From Eledone cirrhosa (taxonomy: Eukaryota), in contig OZ024745.1 of assembly GCA_964016885.1 (NCBI GenBank), positions 87,730,001 through 87,794,000 on the forward strand: a DNA stretch of 64,000 nucleotides, given 5' to 3'. Below are positions 15,533-59,492 of the stretch, piece after piece. Position 1 is the stretch's first letter. The number at the start of each line of letters is the position of its first letter. The notes under the pieces are model-generated. The model was not told the origin of the DNA. It did no database searches and worked only from the letters and a program-made list of their open reading frames with translations. A program made the translations under genes and the position numbers.

Positions 15533-15859
15533 TGTTTTTGTGTTGCACCATAGAGCATGTGTGTTTACGTATGTCATTGTGTTTATATGTGGGTAGAGAT
15601 GTGTGCTGATGTAGGTATGTATGTTGACGTCTCTATGTTGTGGGTTCGTCTTAGGGAGAAGTATTTAGTACAGGAACACCCCATTCAATCTACAACGACC
15701 AACCCGAACCACATTTTACAACAACAAGGAATATAACAAACACAGGAGACCACTTAACATCAGCAGACAACCCCTCTACCCCAACCATTTTTTAGACACA
15801 GCACACAGATACAGGCAAACAAAATAACACAAGACAGGGAGGAGAAACCGATAGTAATA

Positions 15860-18114
15860 AAAATTATCAATCTTACTAGTGCAGAACCAACACCCAACCT
15901 TATCAACTTACTCTCCAAAGGTCTTAAATTCACACCGACCCCACTACGTCCTAACTACTATGAAATGAAGGAAGACATAACAGACTTCTGTAGAAAGTTA
16001 CGACTTAGTGAACAACTATTCGACCAGTACAATGAGGATGAATCATTAGCCAGAAATAGAAGCAATTACACGCCTTCAAAAGGTAGAAATAAAATCCTGG
16101 ACGAATTCTGTGAACACATCACAAACTTCCCTTACCAACACTTGCACAGACAAAAACACAAGCCAAACCTCCACAAGAAAGAATGGGAATAATTAAATAG
16201 ATTAAAAACCGACAGAACCATTACAATTAAAGAGGCTGATAAAGGGAGTACAGTAGTCCTAATGGAGACAGAATTCTATATCAACTTAGCTCTATCCACT
16301 TTGGAAAACGAAACATACTCCGAAAAGGCTGAACACTACAATCAACAGAAAATTATGAGAAACCTAAAAACTCTAATCAACCAATACAAAGAAGGACTCA
16401 CTAACAAGAAATTCAGCTTCATCACAGACTTCACAAGTAAATCCAGCCTTTTCTACGGTATCCCTAAAGTACATAAAAGCGAATTAATAAGTAAGGCATG
16501 CAAGGAAGCCACAGACATAGTCATCAATGTCCCCTCACCCAATTATCTCAAATTAAGACCTATAATAGCAGGCCCCGCTTGCGAAACTCACCGCCTTAGC
16601 AACTTCATTGATACCCTTCTCAAACCCTTTCTCAAACACATCAAAAGCTATATAAGGGACGACCTAGATATGCTCAATCACCTCCCTAATATGCCACTTT
16701 CTGAACAGACCCTATTAGTGACGTTCGATGTAGTCAACCTATACTCCAACATCCCCCACAACCTAGGAATAGAAGCTATCCAATTCTGGCTCGATAATTT
16801 CCACAATAAACTCCCACAACGCATCAAAAAAGAATTCGTGATAGAGGGACTCAAATTTATCTTGGAGAACAATTACTTCGTTTTCAATAACAAACCCTAC
16901 AGACAGAAATCTGGGACCGCTATGGGAACGAAAACAGCCCCCACTTATGCCAACCTAGTCATGGGATACCTGGAAATCACCCTCTACACTAAAGTCCTAA
17001 ACAAATTTGGAAACACCCTCCACTTACACATTGAAAGGAACTGGAAGCGATATCTAGATGACTGCTTCATCCTTTGGCACGAAAACATCGAAAAACTTAA
17101 AGAATTTCACACCCTTATAAATGGGCTCAACACGAATATTAACTTCACGATGGAATACTGCCATCACCAACTCCCCTTCCTCGACATCCTCATTAAGATC
17201 CATAACAAAAAAATAGAAACAGACATATACTACAAGCCCACAGACTCCAAGCAATATCTCCCTTTCGACTCTTGCCACCCTAGACACGTTAAAATTAATA
17301 TTCCCTACAACTTAGCCAAGAGAATCTGTACTATAGTCTCCAATAAAAACACCTGCTACTTACGGCTACAAGAACTAAAGGACACACTCATAGGCAGGGA
17401 CTACCCTGCATCACTAATTGACAATGGAATCCAATGTGCCCTAAAACTCAGTACCCAGGACCTTAGACAACCTAAAGTAAATCAAGCGAAACTAAAAGCT
17501 CTTCCATACATCTCCACACACAACCCCCTCAACAATGAGGCCTTTGACACCACCCTCCAGAACATCCCTGTGTTGAAAAAGGACCATAGAATGAACCAAA
17601 TCCTACGAACACACGATATCATAAAGACCAAAAGACAATCCAAGTCAATGAAAAACATCCTAACACATGCCAAAGTACTGCCAACCACAACAACGAAACC
17701 CACAGTAAAAAAATGCGATAGACCCAACTGTGGCATTTGCATCAACCTAATAGAGGGTTCGGAATTCTATTTCAAAGAAGGACAACGTTTTATAGTAAAA
17801 CACAATTTCACATGTGCATCGGAAAATCTAATATATGTATTAACTTGCTCAGGTTGTCGAGAACAATATATATAGGCCAGACCAAAATCAGCCTCCGCCA
17901 ACGCATGACTGTCCATAGATCCCAAATTAAAATACGGGAATACAGGAAAATACCACTGAGTGAACACATTGATACCTGTGCCGCCCAGAATCATCCCAAC
18001 TTCAGAATCTTTCCCCTCTACAAATTTAAAGATAATGCCACCCACACCCAGCGCATCAGCAAGGAATCTTACTTCATTAACAAATACGGACCCCGTCTAA
18101 ACACTTCTCCCTAA
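15860..18114 (+). pseudogene. Neptune-like PLE RT-GIY-YIG ORF with one stop and one frameshift
   Basis: LSKGLKFTPTP, KEADKG, FDVVNLYSNI, QKSGTAMG..APTYANL, RYLDD, LPFLD, CDRPNCGIC, NLIYVLTC..YIGQT. TAA at 16190-16192 and frameshift at ~17870. Confidence 0.92.
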
Positions 18115-18229: not shown

Positions 18230-18285
<56 letters not shown>

Positions 18286-18289
<4 letters not shown>

Positions 18290-18800
18290 AAGGTTTAGCA
18301 AATAATGAAAAAGTTTCAAAATAAATTTTAAAAAATTGACTTTACCTACTATAGTTACCTTTACCGATCGGTTTCGAATCCCAAAAATAGACGGAGACCA
18401 TACGGCCTTCGTTGCAAAGAAAGATTCTCGTCAGAAGGTTCTTTTCATTCGAAGAATATAAAATTCCTGAATTTAAATTACGAACTAGCGCTATCAAAAC
18501 TGTTCCTGGGATGAGAGTGGATGATGTAGAAACAGGTTTATCAAGGGCCGAAGTAAAGATAGAGGCAGAAGGAGGTAGGTCAAACCAGCCGCAGCTATCA
18601 CTAGCAGCAGTCGGAGCGACCAAATTTGTTCTCAACTTAGAGGAGTTAGTGATAATAGGATACGTGTTCCTTCACGCACAAGGCGCTAAGGTACGCATGT
18701 ATTGTCCAACCAAATGCCAGTGTGGTTCAATGGCGGGTTAATAAATTAACGAGCCAGAACAAATATAAACAAGGTTTAGCAAATGATGAAAAAGTTTCAA

Positions 18801-28904: not shown

Positions 28905-31900
28905 AAGAAAGAAGAGTGACATGATTTGCTATACAATAAGAGCTTTATTCACATTGCTGACAATTGTTTCTCTGAACTGGTAGGTCTAGAGATCGCTACC
29001 CGCCTGTTTTTGCGTCAATCGATCACCAATACTTTGTTATAAGCAGTCAATTTATCTGAGCATGCGAGAATGAAGGAAATACACAGGCGTGGCTTCTATA
29101 TATAGTAGTGGCATTAAATCAGAACAATAATAACAATACTCAAATAAATTAGCTAGACCGTAAATAGTTAAAATAATCACAACATCAATCTAAATAAGAC
29201 ATAGAGTATACTGATGACTTTAGCATGTAAAACGAGCTGATACGAAGCAGATGTATGAAATTGACATGTAAAAGCTGTCATGGGGTATATTATATATAGT
29301 GTAGAGTTAACCTGGGGCTTGAAACAATGGACCATTTACTTTACTGTAGGTTGGCTGACCGTAAGATTTATTTATTATCTGACAGATAAAATATTTCCAT
29401 TGTAGTGAGGATGGTAATTTTTTCCGTGGTGTAAAGCGGGTTCATTATTTAAGTGGTCTATATTAGATGAAGGCATTGTTAGTTCGAATCATGGGGTTGT
29501 TTAGCTTTCACAGCATCAATAACAAATCATGCATGGATAAGACAACAATAACAGCAATATAGGTGGTAAGTTAATACAGAGGTTAAGGAAGCAAGGTATA
29601 TATAGAGAGAACATGATGAATACTATTACGGATACATTGGGGTGTTCATTATAACAGCAGAAGGAAGGTGATATGTCAAGGACTGTGGTAGTAGTCAAAT
29701 AATGTACTTAGAATTAAGTTCATCTGTTGAAAATCAAGAGTGGGGAGGTTGTGTTGACAGCAGCCGGGAAGAGATATATTTATGGGTTGATAAGATATGT
29801 GCAGACATTACTGTGGTATAGAATTAAGGAGGCTGAAAGCTGCTTAAAGAATATTATAGTTCTGTGGTGGTCTGTGTGAGAGTGCGGATTTCATGTGTTG
29901 AATGCTAAGTTATGTTGGTTCGAATCACGGTGGCTTAAATCTTATGAATTTAGTAGCGATCCTGTGTCTGCAGAAAATTGACCTTTCTATCTTGTTGTTG
30001 AGTAGCCTTTTATCGTTCCTAAGGATATACAGTAATTCAAGGTCGCAGAGCCTACAATAGGACATATCGGTACTATATGCCCTTGCGGCCGACAACCTCG
30101 ACCAGTTGATATTGTAATCGATGTTTTTGTCCTTAAGTTCCCAGATGTTTTTGGCGAGGGCTGTAGAACCTGTTAGTGCACGGTTCTTCATCGAATGTCT
30201 GTGCACATACCATCTTTTTTTAAACGTACGCGCGGTGGATCCAATGTAATGCCAAGTGGAGTTGCCCGAGTTCACCGTACACATGTACACTAGGCTCGAA
30301 TCAAGGCACCTGTTCGCCAATGGGCACCTATCTGGTAAGTGACAATTGCAGTTTGAGGTGTTATTCCGTGCAGCTTCCACACCGCTGTTTTGTACACTGC
30401 TATAAGTGGGTTGTGATTCATGCCCGTTGAGGTTTTGCTGCGGCGTGCTCGTATGCGTTTGCAGTTGTGATACTGTGATGTGTTTATGTTTATAATTTGG
30501 TGCTATGTTGCGCATAGGTGGGGTGGTTTCCCTAGAGGTATTTCAATGGTTGATCTTGCGTATGTGGGTTTCTATATTTGCAGCCGTAGAGTATGAGAGT
30601 TTTATAGTTTTTCTATTGAGGATTTTATGATATAGGGAAGTGTTTATCTATTAGTTTAAAAAACGTAGAAGGCAGTCTAGTTTTTACAGAGAAGTTGAAG
30701 ATTGGATTAAACCACAGGTATTTTCTTTCTCTAATTCTTCCATAGTTTCTAGGGTTTACATTATTCATGTTTGGACCATCTACTCTAGGCGCTATTTGCC
30801 TACATCTATGTCTAGTCCTGTTACCTCTGTTTTGTGTGAGCGGTTGGTGTCAGTGGGTTTGTTTGAGTTGTCCTTATCCGTTATAAACTGCAGCTTTTCT
30901 TTGTGTCCGGACCTATGTAATGCCGTGTTATAATAATTAGCATGCTTATTAAAAATTTCTAGGTTTGAGGATAAGCGGGATATTCTAAGGGATATACTAC
31001 GTGCTATGGAACTGATTATGGATCGGGGGTGGTTTGAATTATTACTAATGTAGGCCAGATTCTCATTAATTTTGTGGAAGGGTTCTATTAATCCCGTATT
31101 CAGATTTAGAGTCACATCTAGAAAGTCTGCCTGTTTATGATTCAGTTCGTAGGTAATACTTAGGCCTAGTTTTTTTAAGAATGTTCTAATGTTTTTTCTT
31201 AATCTTTCTATGCTCTGGTTATTTAAGTTCCTAGCTATAAAGAGCGTGTCATCTCTATAAATCCCTCCTTGGAGGTTACTGAATTCTTTATGTAGGATGT
31301 GTGCTATAAATAACCCCACGGCCTCAGTGATTTGCGCTGAATCGTTCGATCCCATTGTAATATCGAAGCTGTTTATCCTACCTTTTCTTATCCAATAGCT
31401 ATTTTCAAATGTTATGATAGTCCTTCTAGCAGCTAGTATTATTTCAATTTCATCAGGGGTAAGATCGGAGTTATTTTGGGCAAATATAAGTGCTTTATCT
31501 AGGGTGGCTGTGGACATGGATGCATAGTAATCGTTTATATCAAATTGTATGAAATTACATGCTTATCTATTTCCTATTTTACTGAACCATTCAATCACTT
31601 CGTTAGTGTTACCCCATAAACTGATTTCTAGTTTTCACTTTATTTGTGCGATTACCCTATCTAGAATATTCTTGCTAATTTTACCTATATCTGACTTAGA
31701 TGGGCATATTAATCTGATAGTAGGATTTGCTTCAAAATTATTTTTGTGACCCTTAAGGTTAAATGTGGGGTTGCATGGGGTTAGAGGTACGGTTCTATCG
31801 GATATTCCGAGTTTATTTACTATCCTAAGACTCTCCTTGTTAATGCTGGTGAGTGTGGATTCATTTGTCTTTTTGTATTTTTTGTGTAGTTCACGCTGAA

Positions 31901-32390
31901 TGAATTTATTGTATGTGTTAAGGTCCATAGAATATATGTTTGATGTTTTGTCTGCCTTTACTATGATACCGTTGGTGTCTGTTAGTTTTTTGAGTAGTGT
32001 ATTGATGTCATTTTGTAATTTGTTGTGGTGTGTTCTTTTATAGAATTTAGTTCCACTTATCATATTCATAATGGTTATAACATAGTATTGGTGATCGATT
32101 GACGCAAAAACAGGCGGGAAGCGATCTCTAGACCTACCAGTTCAGAGAAACAATTGTCAGCAATGTGAATAAAGCCCTTATTGTATAGCAAACCATGTCA
32201 CTCTTCTTTCTTGATTTATTATTAGTCAAGGTGTAAACTACATAGAAATCACCGCGTACTCGCAACATCACTATGGAAACGTCTTGTTGAGTCAAACACA
32301 GCCAAGCGTTAATACTATTCACTACTCGGAGTACCCTAACTGGACTACATCTAAGCGGACCACCTATAAAAATAATTTCTTATCCGTATA
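28905..32390 (-). mobile_element. Naiad-type PLE, decayed, with inverted partial pLTR (32072-32390)
   Basis: ADKTSNIY, IRLICPSKSDIG, FDITMGSNDSAQ, GGIYRDD, CNCHLPDRCPL..LVYMC..YIGST. Degenerate HHR (CAGATAA core, GAAACAATTGTC) at 28955-29062. Confidence 0.9.
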
Positions 32391-41306: not shown

Positions 41307-43382
41307 TTTCGTTTCTGAATTTGTTTAGCAAGATTCTTTATCTGAAATAGTGTGTTGAAACCGATATTGTTATACTTTGGGAGGGTCATGTTGCCAATAA
41401 GAAACACACGCACCAGTTGCTTTCACTTCAATATATTATAATAAATTTATAAATTTAGGAATTTATAAATTTATAAATTTCTGGTTGGTTGGTTCCACAA
41501 CCAGATAGTTGTTTATATATTGTCAAAGTTCTTTCGTCACACATTCTGTGACCTCATCAGTGACTGGGGATTATTTTCTTTGTTTCTGTGCCTCTCCTTT
41601 GTTCTGTCCTACGCCATTTTGTTTCTGTGTGTGTGTTGTGTGTTCAGTCTGCGCATGCGCCACATCCGGGTGTCTGTGTGTGTTTATATTTGTTTATTTA
41701 TTTGTTTATTTACATGTTACCGGTTGGTTGTTTGTTCTATGTGTGTGTGTGTTTGCATTTTGTCCTTAATTGTAAGTTGTGATGTTGCTGTTCCACTCAT
41801 ATTTTCTATTTAATTTTGGTTGTAATTCTTTTATGTTTATTGCCTCTGTGATTTGTCTAAACATTGCGTCTTTTCTGTGTGTAGATTCTATTTTTATTTC
41901 TATGTTCTCTAATTTACCCTTATGTTCTATTTTAGCATGTTGGTAGAGTACAGATGATTCTTTACTATCTTGAAGGTCTCGCCAGTGTTCATTTATCCGT
42001 TCCCCTACACTACGAGCTGTCTCACCTATGTACACTATATTTTTGTCTCTACATTGTCCTTCAGTACATCTTATGCTATACACTACATTTCTAGTTTTAC
42101 AGTTAATATGGGGGCTTATTTTACAGGTTATACATTTCTTATCTATACAGGGGTGTCTTTGAAAAGGGTATGTCTTGCTAATAAGAGTTTTTACGGAGGA
42201 ACCTGGTCTTTCTACTATCTTAATATTGAGTTTATATTTATCTAGGGCCCTTCTAAATTTGTAAGCTAATTCACCTCTAGGGGTTGTATCGATGAACATT
42301 ACACTCTGGTATTTATTGCTATCATACCATGAGTTTATTCTATTAGCCTTGTTCCTAGTTCTTTCTATTCTATTACAAAATTTGCTCCTATACAAGGGGC
42401 AGGTCACATTTATGTCATTATTTACCATTTTTTACCATTTGGTTCTGGCTCCTCTATACACTCTGATTTTATCTCTCTGATTGTAGCCAGAGAACTGCAT
42501 ACGGTGGATGAAGTGTTGTATGTGTCTCTCTAGTTCTTCAGGGTTGCACATGCGGGACACGTTTCTCATCACCCGTACCAAATCCGCAATCAGTATGTTG
42601 ATTTTTGTATGGTCCGAAACGGCCGAGTTTCGGTGGATCAGATGTTTGGAAGTGATAGGTTTGGCATTATGGGAATAGAGGATTTGTTTTTTGTTATTAA
42701 TGGTATCTAACCAGAGCTCTGTGTCTAGTACAGGTAATCGATGGTTGGGGTGTTTACTTGGGTAGTCTATAGTAACTCTAATACTCTGGTGGATGGAGTT
42801 AGCTATTTGCTGGATGCTTTCCATTTGTTTTTCTCTAGTTCCTGACTGTTCTCTAGTGGGGGTGTCTTAACTACGATGTTTATATCATCAACGTAGCGGG
42901 AGTACATTATCAGGGTTAAGGGGTCTTCTAATTGTTTTTAAGTTTAGTTTAAGTCTACTGTCCCACCATACCATGAATAAGTTAGCTATGTCGCCTGCAA
43001 AGCTAACACCAATGGCTGCTCCTTCCTCTTGGGCATATGTTTTTCCATTAAATTTGAACATAAGTTCCTTAAGGGTTAGTTTTATGCTGGCACCTACCGC
43101 ATGTGCAATCATTTTCTTCAGTTCATCGTGGTTTCCGGGTGTCCGTATGGCTCTGGTCCACCCGTTCCATCTATCTGTGTGGGTTTTCTTGGCCATTGAG
43201 GTAATGGTAGGTGGTCTGCCTCTTGCTGGTCTTGTAGGGCACAGGTTGCTAAGGTCATATGTGTCTAGGTAATTATTACTATAGGTAAGTTTCAGTAGGA
43301 GTCCCAGCTCACTGAACTCATCAGCGAGAGTAATGTTGAGTTCCGTGTGTTTCTTATTGGCAACATGACCCTCCCAAAGTAT

Positions 43383-43385
<3 letters not shown>
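41307..43385 (-). mobile_element. Family A PLE, second long copy
   Basis: ORFs 42888-43454, 42432-42824 and 41766-42428 (GAAIG, LPVLD, VVYSIRC..YIGET). HHR at 41522-41564; short inverted pLTR piece at 43345-43385. Confidence 0.92.
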
Positions 43386-43453
<68 letters not shown>

Positions 43454-43488
43454 TATATACTTTTATATGCTTAAACTTTAATCTGTTA

Positions 43489-43527
<39 letters not shown>

Positions 43528-43571
43528 AGTATGTATACGTACATACATATATGTATACAGACGTAGAGTAC

Positions 43572-43818
43572 TATGTATGGATTTACCGAGCATTTATTAT
43601 AATGCTCGCTTTGTTTGTAAACAAATACCCCGAATTAAGCCGTACAGTGTTTAGCAACCATCGTTGCCCTTTTTTCAACACTGACATAGTACATCGTTCC
43701 TTTTTCAGTGTTGAACAAAAGGGCAAAGATGGTTGGTAAACACTGTACGGCTTAATTCGGGATGTTTGTTTACAAACAAACCGAGCATTATAATAAATGC
43801 CCGGTAAATCCATACGTA
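43572..43818. repeat. Foldback / MITE-like inverted repeat (~113-bp arms, ~20-nt loop)
   Basis: Arms 43572-43684 and 43705-43818; TA-rich flanks. Confidence 0.85.
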
Positions 43819-43841
43819 CATATATATATATATATGTGTGC

Positions 43842-44088: not shown

Positions 44089-47000
44089 TGTCCTGGGTAT
44101 GACATTAAACTACATCCAGTGGCAAGGCTCCAGTTCGGGAGTTCAGGAGATGTGAGGAATGTGGTGTTACCCCTTAGTTGTCATGACTCCCAGATCTGCC
44201 CTGGCCCGGGATGGTAGTACCTGTTAGGGCTCCGTTTATGGGTTAAATAACTACCTTATTCGAGTGGCGCCGGTAAGGTATTGTCAGCCATTGAAAAGAT
44301 ATATGGAGAGTCGATATAACAGCACTAGGGTTAGAGCCCCTAATTACACTGTCAATGAGCAGCCTGGTCGTTATGACTCTGCTGGCTTAGAGCCACAGAG
44401 AGGGTCAGTGGATGATGGATCAGCTGTCTCTGAGACAAATATAAAGAATGCAGTTTTGTCCTGCAGAAGAGCCATCAAAATGGGCACTTTGAATGTGAGG
44501 ACTATTCGGACGCTGGAGAAGAGAGAGGAGTTGGGTCATCTGTTCGAGGAGAGTGGTATACAGATACTTGCGATCCAAGAACACAGGATTCTACACGATG
44601 AGCCCGTGAGGAGTGTGATGATCGGGAGGAAGAGCCAGCTCATCACTACATCGGCAGTGAAGAACACAACAAATGCTGCAGTAGGAGGAGTGGGTTTTGT
44701 GTTCAGTGCAAAAACCAATCTGTTGGTGAGGGAAATAATGCCTATCTCCCCGCGAGTGTTGAGGGTGACCTTCAATGGAAACCCAAGACTGACAGTCATC
44801 TCAGCCTATAGTCCAACCGAGGGGGACAGTGATGTGAATGTGGAGGAGTTCCATGAGGAGGTGTGTAGAGCTGTCAACACCACTCAGCCACACAATATCC
44901 TGCTTGTTTTGGGGGACTTCAATGCACATCTGAGTAAGGAGGGCAGTGAAGATCATTGCTGGTACTTCCATAACAACACCAACCGAAATGGAAGACTACC
45001 GAGAGACACCCTGCTGGAGGCGAACTTGATGGCGACCAACCTAAGGTTTAGGAAGAATCTGGGGAAGATGTGGACCTACATCTCAGATATGCACCTGTCC
45101 AAGTCCCAGATTGATTTCATTCTGGTGAGGAAAAAGTGGCGGAATAGTGTTCTGAACACGGAACCATACAGCTATTTCAGTACACTGGGTAGTGGCCACC
45201 AGCTTGTTATGAGTGAGGTCCGCGTGAGCTTAAGAAAGAGCAAGGCTCAGCCCCGGAGAACAATCTATGACTGGGGAGCTTTCAAGGAAGATGATAAGCT
45301 ACAGGAGAGGTTCACAGTGGAAGCGAGAAACAGGTTTAGTGCTCTGTGGGGAGAGTCAGAGGAGAGAGAGATTGGATGGACTGAGGAGAGTGTGACGAGG
45401 AGGTACGGGCACTTCACCAATGCAGTGGCGGAAGCAAGTGAAACCCTGGTGCCGAGGAAAAAGAACAAAGGGAAGCACGTCAGCTCTACAAACCCAAAAG
45501 TGTGTGCAGCCAGAGAACACCTGAAAGCTGCGAGGGACCAATTCTATGCTGATCCTACGGAGGAGAGGATGGAGACTGTGGAGGTGATGAGGGAAGAGCT
45601 CTGTACCGCTTACACTGAGGTCAGAGAGGAGGCACTGATAGAGAAGATCAGAAGTGTGGAGAGAGCGGTTGACAGATCTGGATGTAAGGAGAGCTGGATG
45701 ATCATCAACGAGATCACAGGGAGGAAGAGAAGGTGTTCGAGTCAGATCCAGGGAACGGGGTCCGAGGATAGGAAAAGGAAATGGCTAGATCATTTTAGAA
45801 CCCTACTAGGAGAGCCACCCTCCACAGCCCAGAGCACTGGGGAGATCAGGCGGCTGTTTGAGGAACTGGATGTTGAGACAGAGCCCTTCACCAGAGAGGA
45901 GCTTCAGAGAGCCAAGAAGAAGATCAAGGAGGGCAAGGCTCTTGGAGAAGATGGAGTGGCATCAGAGGTGATGAAGAGGTGTGATTTTGATGATATCATC
46001 CTGGGGTTCTGTAACGGGGCACTGGATTAAGGAGTTGCCCCAAATTAGTGGAGGATCAGTAACATCGTCCCAGTGCCAAAGAAGGGAGATCTCTCTAACA
46101 CCAACAACTAAAGGGGGATCTCACTGACGTCACTTGTGGCAAAGACCCTCAACAGGATGATTTTTAACAGGATCCAGCCTGAGATGGAGAAGAAGCTCAG
46201 GGACAACCAGAACGGCTTCAGTCACATCCTGATGCTGAGGAGGATATTAGAGGGAGCTAGTGCAAAGTGCCTTCCTGCGGTCATGGTTTTCATTGACTTT
46301 AGGGAAGCCTTTGATTCTCTGGACCGTTAGTGCCTGATGAAGATCTTACAGGCTTATGGAATCCCCAAGATGATAGTGGACCTGATATCACTGCTCTACA
46401 CCAACACCAAAGCCCAAGTCATTACACCTGATGGGATGACAGAGTTCTTTGAGATACTGGCTGGAGTGCTCCAGGGAGATACATTGGCTCCCTACCTTTT
46501 TATCATCGTAGTGGACTATTGTATGCGCCTTGCACTGGAGAAACACCAGGACTCTGGCTTTACTGTAGCACCGGCTCAGAGCAGGAGAGTTAGGGCGAAG
46601 AAGGTATCGGATGCTGAATTTGCCGACGACATAGTTTTGGTGACAAATAGAGTGAAGGAGGCAGAGGATTTGATGCGGCAGGATGAGACTTCGTTGATGA
46701 GTGTGGGGCTGAGAATGAATGAGACTAAAACAAAATATCTGGTAGAGAATGTTGTGAAGCCAGAGGGGATCACTGATGTAGGTGGGAAGCCGCAAGAATT
46801 GGTTGAGGACTTCCTGTATTTGGGAGCAAAGATTGGGAATACGGAGGATGATGTGGTTGAGAGGAAGAGCAAGGCCTGGGCGGCGTGCCACAGCTTGAGA
46901 ACGGTGTGGAAGTCGGACCTTCGTAGAGACCTGAAAATCCGCCTCTTCATTGCTGTAGTGGAGTCTGTGCTGCTGTATGGGTCTGAGACTTGGACACTGA

Positions 47001-47371
47001 CCAATAAACTCACTCAGATGGTGGATGGGTGCTACACGAGAATGCTGAGGATGGCTCTGAACATTAATCAGTATACACTGAGGATGAAAATCTCAGAGCT
47101 GTTTGGGAGCCTCCCAAAAGTCAGCTCAAAAGTGACACAGAGGAGACTGAGGTTGGCTGTACATGCTCACCGACAGCCAGAGTTGACATTGCACTCAGTG
47201 CTCCTTTGGGAGCCCCTACATGGACACACTAGAAGAGGAAGACCGAGGTTAACATATGTTGATGCCCTAAGGACAGACACTGTTCTGTTGGAGATGCAGG
47301 ATATGGCAGCGATAATGAGGGACCGAGACCGCTGGAGAGAACTGGTCCATGGATCTCGGGAATTTTACCCG

Positions 47372-47375
<4 letters not shown>
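44089..47375 (+). mobile_element. Near-full-length RTE-clade LINE (APE endonuclease + RT), inactivated
   Basis: GTLNVRT, AIQEHR, SAYSPT, GDFNA, QIDFIL, then RT FIDF..AFDS, QGD, FADD, YLG. Stops at 46028, ~46046, ~46108 and 46328. Confidence 0.95.
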
Positions 47376-47418
<43 letters not shown>

Positions 47419-47672
47419 GAAGTTATATTTAATTTGTTGTGATTCCAACAAACATAAATGTGTATAACTGATATAGAGCACTTAACAGTTTACTGGAGTA
47501 AATATTCCAATATATTAATAAATGGAAACTATATTTATAAAACCATAAAGTCAATCTTGGTGTGCTTTAATCAGATGAAATAAAAAATTTGTTTTATAAA
47601 TAGTGACATAAACATGGAAAACAACATTGACGGTTGAAAATTCGCTGGATAGTTTCCATTTATTAATATATT

Positions 47673-47776: not shown

Positions 47777-48623
<847 letters not shown>

Positions 48624-48651
48624 TGTAATAAACAACATAAGGCAATTATTC

Positions 48652-48705
48652 CATTTACCAGTGGTTTCTTAAAAGCAAAAGATATTGCTTTCAATCCTCA
48701 GAATG
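48652..48705 (-). ncRNA. Type I hammerhead from the pLTR of the 56.4-58.3 kb Naiad family
   Basis: CATT-CTGAGGA-TTGAAAGCAA..TTGCTTTTAA-GAAAC-CACTG-GTA-AATG; copies at 51336-51389 and 56451-56505 (the latter has a GTG triplet). Confidence 0.8.
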
Positions 48706-48903
48706 AAAAAATCCTGGTCTGTTTATTGAATTTGGATTTTAAAGAACAAAAATGCAAGCTATATGAAAGTGAGGCTGGAGAAAGAAGAAGGAAAGGAAAA
48801 ATAAAATAAAGCCACACATGCAAACACACACACAAACATGCACACACACACACGAAAGCATACATACACACACAGACATATATATATATATATATATATA
48901 TAT

Positions 48904-50040
48904 AAACAATTAAGTTAAAAATGTACATCTACATATGCATAGTGAAATACTAGTATGCATATGAATACGCACACGTATACATATGTAGATGTACCAAGTC
49001 TTTCACTGGTTACTTTACTGTGAGTATCCAGCTATTCTGTATGTAAACACACAGACAAACCGGTTTTTAGAGTCATACTGGTTTTTGAGGAAACACCTTT
49101 CCTCTATTCTCCTGAAAGCCAGACAAGGAATATTGAACTAGTTTCGTTGTTGTTACAACTCATCAGCAATATTTACCTATCTACGGGCCTTTCTGGAGAA
49201 TCGTAAAAGCACATATCGTTATATGCTTTTTCTATGAAAATTAGTAGTGGGCAGACTAATTTGCATAGAGTGTGAGTACGTACCGGTTCAACGGAGACGA
49301 TAAAAACAAATAACGAAACGAAATTAAATTTCGTTTCGTTTGTAACTCACTTTTGTATGACTGACGCTTAAACAATTAAGTTAAGAATGTACATCTACAT
49401 GTGCATAGTGAAATACTAGTATGCATATGAATACACACACGTATACATATGTAGATGTACCAAGTCTTTCACTGGTTACTTTACTGTGAGTATCCAGCTA
49501 TTCTGTATGTAAACACACAGACAAACCGGTTTTTAGAGTCATACTGGTTTTTGAGGAAACACCTTTCCTCTAGTCTCCAGAAATCCAGACAAGGAATATT
49601 GAACTAGTTTCGTTGTTGTTACAACTCATCAGCAATATTTACCTATCTACCGGCCTTTCTGGAGAATCGTAAAAGCACATATCGTTATATGCTTTTTCTA
49701 TGAAAATTAGTAGTGGGCAGACTAATTTGCATAGAGTGTGAGTACGTACCGGTTCAACGGAGACGATAAAAACAAATAACGAAACGAAATTAAATTTCGT
49801 TTCGTTTGTAACTCACTTTTGTATGACTGACGCTTAAACAATTAAGTTAAAAATGTACATCTACATATGCATACTGAAATACTAGTATGCATATGAATAC
49901 ACACACGTATACATATGTCGATGTACCAAGTCTTTCACTGGTTACTTTACTGTGAGTATCCAGCTATTCTGTATGTAAACACACAGACAAACCAGTTTTT
50001 AGAGTCATACTGGTTTTTGAGGAAACACCTTTCCTCTATT
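48904..50040 (-). mobile_element. 466-bp tandem array (~2.4 units) with a minimal hammerhead in each full unit; retrozyme-like
   Basis: Unit starts at 48904, 49370 and 49836. HHR AATATTG-CTGATGA-GTTG..CAAC-GAAAC-TA-GTT-CAATATT at 49129-49173 and 49595-49639. Confidence 0.8.
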
Positions 50041-50751
50041 CTTTTCTCCCTTTCATCTAACTCATTCATGCTCATCTCACAATATATCCTTACTTAAATT
50101 ACCTGTTGTTCTTTTTAATAATACATATCAACATTTTCTTTCCATCGCACATATTATTAAACCCTTAAATATCATTCATAATACATATTAACTTTTTCTT
50201 TCCATCGCACATGTTATTAAACCCTTAAATATTATTCTTAATACATATTAACATTTTCTTTTCATCGCACATATTATAAAAACCTCTCAATATACAATCC
50301 TTAACTTTACATTATTTATCTCTTCGTTAATTTTCAAATTCTTTTAATTTATACATTATCTTCCAACGGTTTTCAACCTCTCTATGTAAAACAATATATC
50401 TTTCTCAGTTATAAAAGATATCTCTCCCTCTCTATCACCCATCTCTCCTCCTATCTCATCCTTCCTCATTATACTCCTCCCTCTCCACTTTTTACTCTCA
50501 CCTCCTCCTCTTTTTCATCCTCCCCCCTCAAAATAAAATATTTTTCCCAATATCACATCAATCTAAAACTACTTCTCATATGTTGATTTAAAACTGCACT
50601 ATCCACACGTGTTTTTTAACCTTCATATCATGTCTTCCTGTTTTATCTGATGAACACACAAATATTATTGCATGATGATATTTGTTTTTGAAATGCGCAT
50701 AATAAAATACATGGCACTCTTTTAACCATATTTTGTTCTTATATATTATAT

Positions 50752-51223: not shown

Positions 51224-51312
<89 letters not shown>

Positions 51313-51556
51313 TGTAATAAACAACATAATTATTCCATTTACCAGTGGTTTCTTAAAAGCAAAAGATTTTGCTTTCAATCCTCAGAATGAAAAAATCCTG
51401 GTCTGTTTATTGAATTTGGATTTTAAAGAACAAAAATGCAATCTATATGAAAGTGAGGCTGGAGAAAGAAGAAGGAAAGGAAAAATAAAATAAAACCACA
51501 CATGCAAACACACACACAAACATGCACACACACACACACGAAAGCATACATACACG

Positions 51557-51607
<51 letters not shown>

Positions 51608-51840
51608 GCGCATTTTGAAATGCGCATAATAAAATATATGGAACTCCTTTAACCATCTTTTGATCTTATATTATGCATACTCCAGTCCCACAAACTGTAG
51701 AGTGCTTCTTATCCGATATCTGCATTGCTTTATTGTACTACAATAAAACTCACCTCCTACATTAACTTGCTCCTTAACGGTTGAGCGCTTACTCTCATAT
51801 TGGATACCTTTTGATGGTCCTTCACCTCTTCTTCTACAAC

Positions 51841-54234
51841 ATGGATTATTACAACATAACCAATTCAACTAAAGACATTCCTATACCTGGTAAATCTGAA
51901 TTCACCAAACTTCTTATTGAAAAAACTGACTCCTTCGTAAGAAGACTTAGATGGACAGCCTATTTCTATGACCAGCGCCTAAAAGGGAACTTTCATACCA
52001 AAGAACACAACTTCCTCGATCATCTTTTTAATTCTAGACGAAATCCTCCTTCCAACAAAAATCTAGTACAATTCGAGGAAGAATTAACTAAAATAATAAA
52101 AAATCTTAAATTCAAGAGATACCCTTACAAAGGACAAGAGCACCTTGTAAATCTCAAGAACACAATCTCTAACCTAAATTCCTCAAAAAATGTTTTAGTC
52201 CACTCTGACAAAACCAATAACCTATATGGTATTTCCAAGGATAATTATAACAACCTTATCCTAAAGGAACTTAGGAAAAAGTATCGTAAAGCCAACCATG
52301 AAAATTTAGAATGCATAAACCTTGAAGCCTATGAGATTATGTCAAAACTTGGCATTGAAAAAAAGACCGAACCATTCCTCCCAAGAACTCCGAGGATAAA
52401 TCTCAAGGATCACAAAAACAATTTTCGCACTGAACTACCTGTTAGATTAATCGCCCCCTCTAAATCTGATCTGGGGGTTATTAGTAAAGCCATCTTGGAT
52501 AGGATTATCCCACAGGTTAGTTCTAATTGCTCTTCTTTAAACCTAAATTTATGGTTTGGTACTCCTGAAGTGATTGGCTGGTTCAACAATTTGGATAATA
52601 AAAACAAACTAAAATTTATTCAATTTGATATTGCCAGCTACTATTCCTCCATTTCGCCTTCACTTCTCAATAATGCTCTATCTTTTGCACTTAAATATTC
52701 TGACATCACCACAGATGAACTTCACATCATCCTCACCGCACGTAAAACCATCGTAGAGTTCAACAACGTATATTGGACCAGAGCCGATACCTCTAACAAC
52801 TTCGACATCACAATGGGAGCATCCGATTCATCCCAATTAACTGATTTAATTGGTATCTTCATTTTGAACTCTTTGAGTCGGAAAATTCCTCAACTTCGCG
52901 GTGGAATTTATCGTGATGATGGACTCTTTACTATCCTAAATTGCAATATAGTTAAACTTAATATTATTAAGAACAATATACGTAATCTCTTTAACCAACA
53001 TAACCTAAAAATTGAATTTGATAATAGTATCAAACTAGCTAATTTCTTGAATGTATCTCTTAATCTTGACACTGGCCTATATTACCCTTACCATAAAAAC
53101 AATGAGAACCTTAATTATGTTAACTTAAAATCTAACCATCCTACCAATATCAAGAATGCTATAGTTAATAATATTGGAAATAGAATATCTAACATATCTT
53201 CTAATAAAAACATCTTTGATGCTAACGCCAATTACTATAATAACGCACTTTCTAAAGCCGGCTATCCAGATAAAATCAAATATAATAAAGAAACAAATTC
53301 TAGAAAAACTTACAGTAGAATAATTAATCATGACCATTCCAATAATTTTAATAAAAGACCTAGATACAAAAACATAATCTGGTATAATGCTCCTTTCTCC
53401 ATCTCTATTAATAACAATATTCCTAAATTATTTTTTAGTGCCTTAAATAAATGCTTCCCTCCCTCACATATCTATAGTAAAATATTCAACAAACACACCA
53501 TCAAATTTTCGTATTCTACATCCTCCAATATTTACAACATCATCTCTAAACACAACAACAAAATATTAAATACTAAATCTCTTCCTTCCAATATTGAATT
53601 TCATAATAACAGTAATAGTACTCCCGACGTCATTGTAAACCCTAGGCTAACTTCTGTAAACCCAAATACAACGTCAAACACAACTTCGCTAAATGTTCAT
53701 AATCCAACTCTAAATCAAGAAACTATTATTCCTATTATTCCTATCGCAAACAACTTCTCCAATCCAATTCCTTCTATAGATAACACTAGATCACTCATTA
53801 ATAATTGCAACTGCCGCATTAAAAATAAATGTCCTCTCAACAACCATTGCCTCGATAAAAACTTAATTTATGAATGTAAAATTATAACTAGCACCAATTC
53901 CTTCACCTATTTTGGCTCCACTTCCACTTCTTTTAAAGCTCGTCTCTATAATCATCATTCATCTTTCAAATACAAACTTAAAAGAACTAACACTGCTCTC
54001 TCAGAACTCATATGGTCCTTAAAAGACAAAAACATTAAATATACCATCTTTTGGAAGAAGATTTCTTCTGCATCCTCATACTTGAACAGCTCTCTATCTA
54101 AAATCTGTAATCTCTGCCTAAATGAAAAATTTACCATTATCTCTAACCTAGATTCTATAATAAATAGACGCTCAGATTTGTTTTCTATCTGCCTGCATAA
54201 ATTCCATAGAACTTTTCACAAAGTATACAGTTAA
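51841..54234 (+). CDS. Naiad-type PLE reverse transcriptase / GIY-YIG endonuclease polyprotein (~797 aa)
   Basis: ATG at 51841 gives MDYYNITNSTKDIPIP, then RLRW, SDKT, KDHK, FDIASYYSSI, MGASDSSQ, YRDDGL, CNCRIKNKCPL, LIYEC..YFGST, CNLC. No internal stop. Confidence 0.9.
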   Translation: MDYYNITNSTKDIPIPGKSEFTKLLIEKTDSFVRRLRWTAYFYDQRLKGNFHTKEHNFLDHLFNSRRNPPSNKNLVQFEEELTKIIKNLKFKRYPYKGQEHLVNLKNTISNLNSSKNVLVHSDKTNNLYGISKDNYNNLILKELRKKYRKANHENLECINLEAYEIMSKLGIEKKTEPFLPRTPRINLKDHKNNFRTELPVRLIAPSKSDLGVISKAILDRIIPQVSSNCSSLNLNLWFGTPEVIGWFNNLDNKNKLKFIQFDIASYYSSISPSLLNNALSFALKYSDITTDELHIILTARKTIVEFNNVYWTRADTSNNFDITMGASDSSQLTDLIGIFILNSLSRKIPQLRGGIYRDDGLFTILNCNIVKLNIIKNNIRNLFNQHNLKIEFDNSIKLANFLNVSLNLDTGLYYPYHKNNENLNYVNLKSNHPTNIKNAIVNNIGNRISNISSNKNIFDANANYYNNALSKAGYPDKIKYNKETNSRKTYSRIINHDHSNNFNKRPRYKNIIWYNAPFSISINNNIPKLFFSALNKCFPPSHIYSKIFNKHTIKFSYSTSSNIYNIISKHNNKILNTKSLPSNIEFHNNSNSTPDVIVNPRLTSVNPNTTSNTTSLNVHNPTLNQETIIPIIPIANNFSNPIPSIDNTRSLINNCNCRIKNKCPLNNHCLDKNLIYECKIITSTNSFTYFGSTSTSFKARLYNHHSSFKYKLKRTNTALSELIWSLKDKNIKYTIFWKKISSASSYLNSSLSKICNLCLNEKFTIISNLDSIINRRSDLFSICLHKFHRTFHKVYS

Positions 54235-55246
54235 TATTCAATTCTTTATCAATTTAGAATCTTTTCTCAAAGGCACATATACATACACCTCTTTAAAATA
54301 TACCCATCTACCTTACTTTAAAGGGCATTATACACTCTATAATACTCGTTTACTCATTACCCTCATTCTATCTTCTCGTAAAATCATAACATTTGTTTTT
54401 GTTTTTGACTTTTGAATATTCATCCGCAATCATTATTATTTTTTCTCTCTATCATAAATCTTTTTAATCTCAATTTCATCCTTAATTTATTATTATTTTT
54501 TTCTCCCCATCAACGAACTCATTATTAATACATATTAACTATTTATTCGCACATATCAATTCAATCAATATACAAACTTTAACTTCACATTATTTTTCTC
54601 AAATCCTTCTACACACAAACCTTAACAATTTTTCTCTTCGCTAATTTTGAAATTGCCACAATACATACATTTCTTCTTTTGACGTTAGAATATTTACCCA
54701 CAATTATTTTTTTTTTTTTTCTCTCTATCTTCATACATAATTTCCCTTCGTTAATTTTCAAATTCCTTTAATTTATACATTATCTTCCAACAGTTCCCAA
54801 CCTCTCTATATTAAAACAATATATCTTTTTCTCAGTTATAAAAACTATCTCTTTCTCTCTATCACCCATCTCTCCCTCTCCACCTTCACTCTCATCTCCT
54901 CCCCCTTTTTTTCATCCTTTCCCCCCCCCTCCCTAAATAAAATATTTTTTCCTCGCACATATCCTCCCTTCGTTAATTTTCAAAATTTTTAATTTATGAA
55001 GTATCTTCCAACGGTTTTCAACCTCTCTATGTAAAAAAAATATATCTCCTCTCAGTTATAAAAACTATCTCTTTCTCTCTATCACCCATCTCTCCCTCTC
55101 ATCTCCTTCCCTTTTCATCCTCCCCCCCCTCTCTAAATAAAATATTTTTCCCAATATCACACATCAATCTAAAACCAATTTTCATATGTTGATTTAAAAC
55201 TGCACTATCCACAAGTGTTTTTTAGCCTTCATATCATGTTCTCCTG

Positions 55247-55313
55247 TTTTATCTGATGAAAACACAAATATTATTGCTTGATGATGTTTGTTTTTGAAAT
55301 GCGCATAATAAAA
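55247..55313 (+). ncRNA. Canonical-core minimal hammerhead in the pLTR of the intact Naiad
   Basis: TTTTAT-CTGATGA-long AU-rich stem II-GAAAT-GCGC-ATA-ATAAAA; upstream copy at 50641-50707. Confidence 0.85.
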
Positions 55314-55551
55314 TATATGGAACTCCTTTAAACATCTTTTGATCTTATATTATATATATATATATATACATACACTCATACATACACACACACATATATA
55401 CACACGTATATATGTGTATATAAATACACACATACACATACATATACACATACATACATACGCACATAAATATCAACACATCCATACATACACATACATA
55501 TATACAACCACACACACATATATACACACATACATACATATAGAAAAATAA

Positions 55552-56399: not shown

Positions 56400-58290
56400 T
56401 ATATATAGTAGTAAATTAATAAAGTAATAAGGAACATAAGGCAATTATTCCATTCACCAGTGGTTTCCTAAAAGCAAAAAAATGTTGCCTTCAATCCTCA
56501 GAATGAAAAAAACCTGGTCTTTGTACATATATATATATATACACACACACACATATATATATATATAAATATATATATATACACATAAATATACACACAC
56601 ATACACATAGGTATGTGAAGGGCAAGGCAAAAAGAATATATGGGGGGTGGGAGACATAGGAAAAGGTGAAATATAAGGGGAGATAAGGGAGAAAAAAATA
56701 TATACAAGAGTACCGAACGTAGATTCAGCAAAATAAAAAAAAACCGTAACATAAGTAAAGAGCAGAGAAGGAGTTCAAGGCGGTTGATTTATCATAGGAA
56801 TATCAATCCAGTTACAGATCAGATGCGATTTCAGATGAGGACAGCATCTGAAGATCTCAGTCTTTGAGTTAAGGCAAGCGGAAGTGGCTCTCAAGTCTAG
56901 CAAAATCCGATATTTTTCTGTGGTACACAAAGAACAAATCTTTGTACCCCTTTGGTACTCCCTCGAATGGTCTAATATAGACCAATCGATAGAGTACGGG
57001 ATGTTCCTATCCTTGAATTCCCACACCTTACTTGCGAGGGTCGTTGATGTTCGTTTATCGGAGTGCTTAAAAGAAGCGACATGTGAGTAAAATCTGGTTT
57101 TAAACCTGTCCTGGGTCATACCGACATATCGCTCACTCCTGGCTGGCTGGTTGTTGATTACCGGTGTTATTTTAACCTCATAAACAACAGATTTGGTGTT
57201 ACATTTACCCTGCAATGGGCATTCATCCGGCTTCCTGCAACTGCATCCTGGATTTGTTCTCGTATGGTTTGAACTGGTGATTTTGGACTTCATAGATGGG
57301 CAACAAGAGTAGCTAATCTTAACTACGTTCCTATTAAGTATCTTATAATATCTATGATTAGGAGGAAAATGTTTGTCTAAGAGTTCAAGGAATTTCCTTC
57401 CTACATTAGTTTTGACAGTTAGAGAGAAGGGGGTGTGAACCAAATAATCTCCCTTTTCCTGTTATTGTGGTTAGTTTTAGGGGGGGAGTAGGTAAATAAG
57501 ACATTGTTTCTGTAAAACCACTGTTCTTAAGGGCTTTATTATAATAAGGGGCGGCTTTATCAAAAATGTCTATAGACGAAGATAAGATAGAAATCCTACG
57601 GGTAATGTTAGGAATAACATTATTAAAAACTATAGGGGGATGGCAAGACTCTTTGTGTATATACCTAAGATTTTCATTAGGTTGATGATAGGGTTTAAAA
57701 GAGGCGGTAAGTAGATCAAGATTAATATCAAGAAAGTTAGTATTAGTAAGGTTCGTATCTATAGTAATTTTAAGGTTAAGATTAGCAAAAGTATTGATTA
57801 CATCTTTACGGAATTTATCAAGGTTATGGCCGTTGGTGGTATGAGAAACTGCTAATCCGTCATCACGGTATAAACCTATATTATGGGAAGGAAATTTCTC
57901 TTTGAGGGTGTGGAGAAGGAATAATCCTACTAAGTCACGCACATCCGCACTGTCATATGAACCCATTGCAACATCAAAAGAGTTTTCTGTGTTTGACTTT
58001 TTAACCCAAATATTATCATTAGTAAAGCGTAAAGATTTTCTAGCATGAAAGATGATGTCTTCTTCTAATTTAGAAATATTAATGAATGGTCTTGCAAAAA
58101 TCTAAGACATTAGTTAATAAGGAAACAGTAATAGAGGGGTAAAAATCGACAATATCAAATTGGGTAAATCTACACTTATTTTTACCTTGAATATTATTAA
58201 ACCAAGAAATAACAGAGGAAGTATTTAGCCACTGTGATAGGTCAGTGTTAGTTCTAATTTGGAGAATTATTTTTCTTAAGATGTTTTTGA
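56400..58290 (-). mobile_element. Naiad-type PLE, 5'-truncated and frameshifted
   Basis: FDIVDFYPSI, MGSYDSADV..LVGL, GLYRDDGL, CSCRKPDECPLQGKC..VVYE..YVGMT, CSLCTTEK. Confidence 0.92.
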
Positions 58291-59492
58291 CTTCGCCATA
58301 CACCTCTCATCCTTGCACCATTTTGTTTTATCGGTCCTCTCTGACAGGTTTTACCGTACAAACCATAGTAACATCTGATCCTGTAAATACAATGTCGATC
58401 ATATCACACCATCGCCACCACCACCACACCACACATCGTCATATGTCTACCATCCACACCCACAACCTTATCCCCCATATTACCTCTGTCTAACATAATC
58501 TACAACCCCACGCTAAGTTCGGTCCTGTAAATGTATTGTCGCACACACAACCACCGCCACCACTAAATACAGCCACATACTTCAACAATCATTAACATCA
58601 TTAACATCATCAACACATATCATCCCTCACTCTCAGATCGACTGTGTTATATCCGCCTCCCGTCTGCCTTACCCTGTAACACACCGTAACTTCTGATCAT
58701 GTAATCATCTTGTCGAACATATCACTCCAGCATCACCACCACCACCATGACCACAACACACATCGCTATACGTCCATAAACTCTTTTACCCCGCGTTCCC
58801 TATGTCACTTTTTAACCTGTAACCCATCGCACTATTCGATCCTGTATGTTTTTGCCCCTCACAAATCCACCACCACAAGACACGACTCCATACTTCATCA
58901 ACACCGCCAACGCATACCTCCCCTCTCGAACCAACGCAAGTGTGTGTGTCTGTGTGTAAGTCCTTTTTACATATACGGGCGTATAAATATGCGTGCGTGC
59001 ATGCATATATGTGTGTGCATATATATATATATATATTTATATATACATATATGTATATATGTATATGTATATATATGTGTGTGTGTATATGTGTGCGTAT
59101 ATGTGCATATATGTGTATGTATGTGTGTGTGTCTTTATCTGTATATGTGTGTCTGTGTGTGTGTATGTGTATCTTTATGTATACGTGTGTGTGCGTGTAT
59201 GCGCGCATATCCGTATGTGTGTATGAGTGTATGTATGTGTATGTCTATAAGTATAACACCATCTTTACTGGCTCTCACCTACCCTCCATATTTGTCCTAC
59301 GCAAACCCCACAGATACTCCCCCACTCTCCCAATATATAACCGCACGCGCGCATGCACATACATGTGTGTTTATATGCATATTGGTGTGTATGTGTGTGT
59401 GTAGACATGTGTGGGTGCGGGTGTGTGTGTGTATGGGGTGTGTTCGTGTGTATATATGTCAATATATGTGCGCATGTATACATATATGTGTG

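Follow-up and report, generated by a model that had tools for sequence, protein, structure and literature searches.

A dispersed 466-bp hammerhead retrozyme family of Eledone cirrhosa with the insertion footprint of Penelope-like elements

The 64,000-nt stretch of Eledone cirrhosa DNA analyzed here (hereafter the window) contains a short tandem array of a 466-bp repeat, a member of a dispersed non-coding hammerhead family that would be copied into (TA)n by the borrowed RT-endonuclease of a Penelope-like element (PLE), likely from a circular RNA monomer (probability about 0.7). The 466-bp family is a real, recently active retrozyme family. The retrozyme identity proposed for the array in a preliminary description is supported by the dispersal of the family, its units, and its hammerheads.

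As listed in Table 1, the array occupies the minus strand between a (TA)n tract and the 3' part of a PLE. The tandem-repeat call gives a period of 466, 2.4 copies, and 98% matches, in agreement with the near-identical head-to-tail units described earlier. The outer (RNA 3') end of the arm is unit base 1, i.e., the fixed "short" end of the family, and the arm is 5'-truncated at unit base 207; the left flank is (TA)n, and the right junction lacks TA. Unit base 397, at which the tail begins, is the "long" end at other loci of the family. Only one arm is present, so the window copy is without an inverted second copy of its own. The units are non-coding and without their own RT; the longest ATG frame overlapping the array within the units is approximately 50 to 60 amino acids, as the earlier statement that there is no substantial ORF would have it, and no PLE ORF continuous with copies of the 466-bp family or its sisters was found at the loci examined. 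The epithet "young" holds only in a relative sense, since the pairwise difference among the window units is 2.2%, against a median within-locus distance of 0 in the family.

Table 1. Features of the 466-bp array and adjacent elements in the window
Feature	Position	Strand	Remark
(TA)n target tract	48878..48903		Short end of retrozyme arm abuts it
Retrozyme arm	48903/48904-50042	- (RNA sense = minus strand)	2.44 units of 466 bp
Minimal type I hammerhead, copy 1	49129..49173	-	Predicted cut 3' of GUU at 49136
Predicted cut-to-cut monomer	49136..49601	-	466 nt, strongly self-paired; putative circle
Extended stem I closing hammerhead	49574..49665	-	Predicted in all three sister families, sequence differing
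Minimal type I hammerhead, copy 2	49595..49639	-	Predicted cut 3' of GUU at 49602; ACUAGU for dimeric stem III
70-nt PLE-type "tail"	49766..49835, also 49300-49369	-	Unit bases 397-466, between two fixed insertion ends
Perfect 14-bp hairpin inside tail	49778..49806		Seen in sequence
6-bp microhomology at head-to-head junction	50037..50042		Array versus Hydra-subfamily fragment
"Hydra-b" PLE subfamily 3' end, 5'-truncated	50043..50744	+	Own hammerhead; ends at Hydra short end before (TA)n
Hydra-clade PLE, context only	51613..55353	+	ORF 51778-54234 open; hammerhead 55245-55315

Each full unit carries one type I hammerhead, and hammerheads in at least two consecutive head-to-tail repeats are a defining trait of retrozymes. 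In the descriptor scan, the core is CUGAUGA...GAAA and CUAG, with a stem I of 7 bp, a stem II of 5 bp, and a stem III of 2 bp, and stem III formed in cis is predicted to close a 2-nt loop. An Rfam search at the gathering threshold returned no match for the array hammerhead. The canonical minimal core, the GUU site, and the 2-bp stem III had all been recognized earlier, as had the extended stem I and the further hairpin; the strand, left unstated, is minus, and the palindrome is ACUAGU, not AACUAGUU. The conserved palindrome comprises these 6 nt, and its flanking outer position is the cut nucleotide, which among 91 distinct variants is U, A, and C in 42, 27, and 21 cases, respectively. The outer A:U pair of AACUAGUU was accordingly rejected as part of the palindrome, as the outer position varies freely. 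The palindrome center shifts from UA to AU and stays self-complementary in 89 of the 91 variants, which, together with the freely varying cut nucleotide, indicates that the dimer helix is ACUAGU. A helix of this kind is expected for dimeric minimal hammerheads (PMC4209133).

The fold of the predicted monomer has a z of -8.85, and none of 100 shuffles was equally good. Covariation was assessed on 26 distinct variants picked from the 91 and drawn from three related families: 97.9% of the cells are paired, and 8 of 13 pairs are altered on both sides. On three of five measures, none of 500 shuffles reached the observed values, and on the other two, which are not exceptional, 119 and 160 of the 500 were as good. 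As judged from this alignment, the predicted hammerhead is kept by compensatory change and is under structural selection. PLE minimal hammerheads cleave weakly (PMC4209133), and Poseidon PAc inserts uncut RNA in vitro, where hammerhead mutants are still inserted, i.e., hammerhead activity is not needed (PMC11167929). Since PAc requires no cleavage in vitro and eight of nine Xenopus retrozyme dimers were without cleavage in vitro (10.64898/2026.07.22.740005), activity should not be assumed here.

The core of the 466-bp family has 5,142 exact matches in the 3.0-Gb genome (control, 0). Exact long ends against TA number 1,983, i.e., there are at least 1,983 insertion ends, and 873 short ends were counted on the strand without overlapping hits. 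By these counts, the repeat is a dispersed, multi-locus mobile family found at roughly two thousand places, rather than the single-locus duplication that had been named as a possible refutation. In a typical insertion, two arms of opposite orientation meet head to head, and both are bordered by (TA)n at their outer ends. The outer end is unit base 1 to 6 in one arm (short end) and base 397 in the other (long end), such that the long end lies 66 to 70 nt beyond the short end. The arms are frequently multi-unit, and one of them holds approximately 30 units. Overall, 111 of 161 insertions are long plus short, none is long plus long, and two are short plus short. The first batch (n = 121, duplicates dropped) was classed automatically, with two mini-arm calls that look false and two missed on inspection, and comprises 85 long-plus-short, 0 long-plus-long, 2 short-plus-short, and 34 one-ended insertions; the short-plus-short pair consists of a compound locus (L151) and a true exception (L118). 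The second batch (n = 40), read by eye, comprises 26 long-plus-short, no like-with-like, 8 one-ended, and 2 ambiguous insertions, and 4 that are cut by an edge or gap. The loci, most of them from contig C1, were selected as best hits of the unit or through matches to core or end patterns, and the proportions and arm lengths are biased accordingly.

These insertions combine an inverted, 5'-truncated second copy and a one-sided tail with (TA)n or AT-rich targets. The inverted copy and the one-sided tail are PLE features, and the tail is absent from TPRT of non-LTR elements (Craig 2021, PMC8557442). In vitro, a PLE protein cuts and extends both strands, and the tail is the interval between two internal RT starts on the RNA (Frangieh 2024, PMC11167929). 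Because this footprint is known from PLEs, a PLE enzyme most likely made the insertions, and we regard PLE mobilization of the 466-bp family as highly probable. Autonomous local Hydra copies have an equal two-arm design with an 88-nt tail, and dozens of further TA-flanked families have the two-arm design as well, with tails of approximately 50 to 170 nt whose length is particular to each family. The tails of Hydra and of sister family F each have a predicted hairpin at the position equivalent to that of the 14-bp hairpin (49778-49806). In many families, an ACTC...GAGT-type pairing lies 20 to 30 nt inside the tail beside the short end (e.g., L078, L074, L089, L059, and L130), and this pairing is possibly a shared RT-binding element.

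Two sister families occur in the same genome. Family F, approximately 62% identical to the 466-bp family over 320 nt, has units of approximately 430 to 480 bp, the same ACTAGT hammerhead, and its own tail of approximately 60 nt; examples are a short two-arm copy in the window (43523-43819), L092:2380-2860, and L063:380-2150. The shared-core pattern with the CTAG palindrome has 40,422 matches genome-wide (control, 31), and all of the first 100 among the matches listed look like the 466-bp family or F, of which F is apparently the more abundant. Family K is older, with 335 pattern matches and copies 76 to 88% alike (loci L221 to L250), an ACATGT palindrome, mostly single decayed units, and no continuous ORF. 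A family-F array at G000:C1:319893984-319896443 has ACATGT for ACTAGT, apparently a separate palindrome-preserving change. Neither a parent pLTR nor an autonomous element whose pLTR is homologous turned up in the window or in approximately 1 Mb of fetched loci; comparison of the unit with the window, a relaxed locus search, the hammerhead catalogue, and families F and K yielded only further non-coding sisters.

The variation among units bears on the template. Units of the same arm differ by 0.34% and those in opposite arms of an insertion by 0.29%, compared with 3.3% for units of different loci. Rare variants were tallied in 63 two-arm loci with at least three units: 23 (at 16 of the loci) are carried by every unit of the two arms, 9 are present in both arms but not in every unit, 26 recur among the units of a single arm, and 197 are confined to one unit each. 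The 5' ends of the arms are not enriched at the predicted cut site (6 of 249, versus 4.3 expected), and 88 of 245 arms, in a sample biased to long arms, traverse that site at least twice. As the arms traverse the cut site repeatedly and their ends are not piled there, a linear monomer was ruled out as the usual template. Repeated copying of one unit, i.e., a circle, would fit best, and the main template is probably the circular monomer; an uncut multimer or subsequent homogenization would be less probable alternatives. Of 36 two-arm loci, sampled with a skew toward near-identical best hits, only 15 have arms that resemble each other more closely than they resemble any other locus. Some arrays are heterogeneous, as seen in the partly shared variants, the one-arm multi-unit variants, and loci L058 and L063, which indicates that the arrays are shaped in part by gene conversion, multimer templates, or local expansion.

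The intact element next to the array had been called a Naiad, an assignment that its ORF contradicts. The ORF contains RWT (position 58), DKT (144), YRDD (378), CxCx5C (677), GIY-YIG (696 to 715), CxxC (777), and CxH (805), so that the RT precedes a C-terminal GIY-YIG; the element has a sense hammerhead and is inserted in (TA)n. Hydra elements are defined by a C-terminal EN, an RWK-like motif, DKT, CxCX5C, CxxC and CxH, a hammerhead, and (TA)n insertion, whereas Naiads have an N-terminal endonuclease and no canonical hammerheads (PMC8557442). Naiad traits fail here: there is no N-terminal GIY-YIG and no CX2-5CxxC, the motif is DKT instead of DKA, and a hammerhead is present. Pfam assigned no family to the ORF, and its clade thus rests on the motifs, by which it is Hydra. 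Compared with the Hydra PLEs described by Craig (2021), the element shares the C-terminal GIY-YIG, RW(T), DKT, CxCx5C, CxxC, CxH, the hammerhead, and (TA)n targeting, but it is approximately 3.7 kb long, as opposed to "generally <3 kb", and has RWT in place of RWK.

The junction at the right end of the array was earlier read as a contact with the pLTR copy of this intact element. The absence of a TA spacer is confirmed, whereas the abutting sequence is a Hydra-subfamily fragment that is approximately 78% like the 3' end of the intact neighbor and 94 to 97% like 14 other copies of the sister subfamily. It is truncated at the junction and oriented away from the array. A microhomology of 9 nt, suggested by one distant copy, shrank to 6 nt with the closest copies. 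Private differences amount to 1.7% in the fragment and approximately 1% in the array, which points to a similar age. As a whole, the window locus resembles a two-arm insertion in which the second arm is foreign; however, its two outer ends, that of the array and that of the fragment, are short plus short, against the one-short-one-long rule of the family, which makes a deletion or joining to an existing copy as likely.

Of the 18 non-TA junctions of the family that were examined, 5 are head-to-head joins to PLE or PLE-type families, in each case to the 3' part, 2 run into antisense LINE-like frames, and the rest are unique or unclassified. The five PLE-type joins (the window, L255, L064 with another Hydra family, L129, and L160 with the long end of an unclassified family) involve four to five different partner families or subfamilies; the partner at L129 is putatively Neptune-type, as read from its linker motif. 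At L255:820-3842, a Hydra-a 3' short arm, 140 nt of a LINE RT frame, and a retrozyme long arm are combined in a chimera that obeys the short-plus-long rule and whose two foreign pieces both read outward in sense, which looks like template switching between RNAs. The Hydra end motif occurs 19,310 times genome-wide. In the flanks of the 466-bp family, 11 motifs were found in 444 kb (24.8 per Mb, at 9 of 120 loci), against 6.4 per Mb genome-wide, and the flanks of F and K contain 3 in 121 kb and 0 in 79 kb, respectively; the approximately 4-fold enrichment is about equal near F, on small counts. At all nine loci, the Hydra ends are separated from the retrozyme copies by TA or lie at a greater distance. 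A family-specific association with Hydra ends was rejected because F is similarly enriched, and the enrichment was read as shared TA targeting. Since joins with other PLE families also occur, the window junction does not fix the partner enzyme. Hydra is the leading candidate, owing to its TA targeting, its part in three of the five chimeras, and a similar predicted tail layout, and the chance that a Hydra-clade RT is the partner is about even. Of the earlier suggestion of RT co-mobilization, a Penelope-like RT, as indicated by the two-arm and tail insertions, is upheld, and the Naiad RT is not.

The pathway that we propose would start with transcription of tandem copies on the hammerhead-sense strand. 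Pairing of two hammerheads via ACUAGU would lead to cleavage at GUH, after which the 466-nt circle would be sealed by a host ligase; the covariation and known retrozymes both point to these two steps. By transfer of the enzymology of Poseidon PAc, a PLE protein would nick both (TA)n strands. RT would start at two internal sites 66 to 70 nt apart that flank the tail hairpin, consistent with the two fixed ends and the TA targeting observed, and each cDNA could circle the template up to approximately 30 turns by a rolling-circle process. The two 5'-truncated arms, whose head-to-head architecture is observed, would then be joined; in the window, the second arm is missing, and the Hydra-subfamily 3' fragment would have taken its place through microhomology-mediated joining or template capture.

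The same PLE machinery and start sites could also act on a linear multimer that is transcribed from a donor array and left uncut, with the hammerhead weak or acting elsewhere. PAc takes unprocessed RNA, including hammerhead mutants (PMC11167929), the ends are not piled at the cut site, and the nine rare variants that occur in both arms without being present in every unit fit such a template. This alternative is nevertheless unlikely in view of the 23 rare variants that no unit of either arm lacks, the arms that reach approximately 30 units, and the compensatory changes by which core, stems, and palindrome are kept across families only approximately 62% alike. In satellite-like growth, a route discussed by Li et al. 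(2026), pLTR-derived monomers would be inserted singly, and arrays would arise later by unequal crossing-over. The 26 one-arm multi-unit variants agree with this route, and a three-unit variant rhythm in one L058 arm and 18-bp inserts between L060 units indicate some local duplication, but both inverted arms are multimeric with a common period and private variants, the exact short and long ends against TA are kept, and a parent pLTR was not found in the window and the fetched loci; we consider growth of this kind very improbable as the origin of the arrays.

Carriage of the array by the RT of an adjacent Naiad, together with the pLTR of that element, would be in keeping with the direct TA-free head-to-head junction, the similar age of fragment and array (1.7% and approximately 1% private differences), and the second chimera, with Hydra-a at L255, that follows the short-plus-long rule. 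The neighboring ORF, however, has the Hydra and not the Naiad motifs, the abutting fragment is of a different subfamily from the intact element, junction partners vary between loci, and the window ends are short plus short, which leaves this explanation with hardly any weight. Co-integration of Hydra, rather than Naiad, with the array in one event at the window locus is possible but somewhat doubtful. Finally, the inverted arrays would be spurious if they were long-read assembly artefacts (fold-back chimeras). Contigs of four runs contain the unit. No strand-change joint was found in short-read contigs, which is weak support for an artefact because each inversion center is unique; on the other side, the arms end at different fixed bases against TA, the tail length is specific to each family, and 12 contigs of run X1, which may not be assembly-independent, show the long end 49766 with TA loose ends. 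We assign artefacts a negligible probability. A broader version of the PLE reading, which we put forward tentatively, is that an old clan of viroid-like ribozyme circles of 430 to 480 nt (approximately 40,000 hammerheads in three families down to approximately 62% identity), which no longer needs kinship with any PLE sequence, would mimic the RT-binding tail structure, such that a Hydra-type PLE dimer may prime on both strands of the target, using two sites of the same circle, and produce palindromic concatemers up to 14 kb, with occasional switches among circle, PLE, and LINE RNAs. Since both start sites are mapped to the base, rolling-circle retrotransposition of a circRNA could be tested directly in vitro.

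The class itself is known: at the sequence level, the 466-bp repeat has every feature that characterizes a non-LTR retrozyme. Like the metazoan non-LTR retrozymes of coral, mussel, and axolotl (Cervera and de la Pena 2020, PMC7229834), it consists of thousands of copies of tandem, non-coding, low-GC repeats, each unit with a single type I hammerhead, has a strongly self-paired monomer, and coexists with PLEs. It differs in its unit length (466 nt, versus approximately 170 to 400 nt), its minimal PLE-type hammerhead with a dimer-only stem III, and its insertion into (TA)n as a pair of inverted arms with a fixed tail, the word "inverted" being absent from the main text of that study; circles and cleavage were demonstrated there and are predicted for the 466-bp family. 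With the vertebrate non-LTR retrozymes (Li, Clavereau, and Pollet 2026, 10.64898/2026.07.22.740005), it shares the PLE link, a unit within 51 to 972 bp, and dimers to multimers. PLE mobilization of retrozymes was proposed by Cervera and de la Pena (PMC7229834) and supported by Li et al. through co-occurrence and pLTR homology, with local tandem growth discussed, in a main text in which "tail", mollusc, and cephalopod have no match (10.64898/2026.07.22.740005); here, the evidence is an insertion footprint, and a parent pLTR was not found. The insertions resemble those of EN+ PLEs (Craig 2021, PMC8557442; Frangieh 2024, PMC11167929) in the inverted two-arm form, the two internal RT starts, the tail on one arm, and the AT-rich or (TA)n targets, but they contain no ORF, their tail is 66 to 70 nt instead of 30 to 40 nt, and their arms are concatemers of a short unit. 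In the literature covered, mostly open-access main texts and including the review PMC11722881, neither an inverted-arm/tail footprint on a retrozyme nor cephalopod retrozymes were found.

What appears to be new, then, is insertion-level support for PLE-driven, probably rolling-circle, copying of a retrozyme. The mobilizing enzyme of animal retrozymes, and the birth of arrays from a circle as opposed to growth as satellites, have so far only been proposed (PMC7229834; 10.64898/2026.07.22.740005). A PLE-specific footprint at thousands of recent insertions, known start sites, and co-resident candidate intact enzymes offer a ready substrate-enzyme test, and the family bears on why PLEs form tandem or inverted copies and keep hammerheads.

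Other elements were observed in the window, which, like the genome, is dense in PLE two-arm insertions. Further broken PLE copies lie at 15758-18114, 29925-32141, 41766-43490, 56577-58300, and 3959-4738 (Hydra-type; others with a CxxxxCxxC linker), and LINE-type endonuclease and RT frames (Pfam Exo_endo_phos_2, weak, and RVT_1) at 44228-47419. Blocks around the Hydra copies are duplicated (48531-48904/51220-51602, 92.5%; 50747-51316/55553-56129, 93%). Another minus-strand hammerhead element is located in 48620-48815 and 51309-51500, with hammerheads at 48649-48708 and 51333-51392 and a palindromic stem III around CCACTGG. A TA-flanked unit of approximately 480 nt at 18282-18800, with a minus-strand hammerhead at 18357-18439 and a direct repeat of approximately 43 nt at both ends, may represent a pLTR or another retrozyme-like family.
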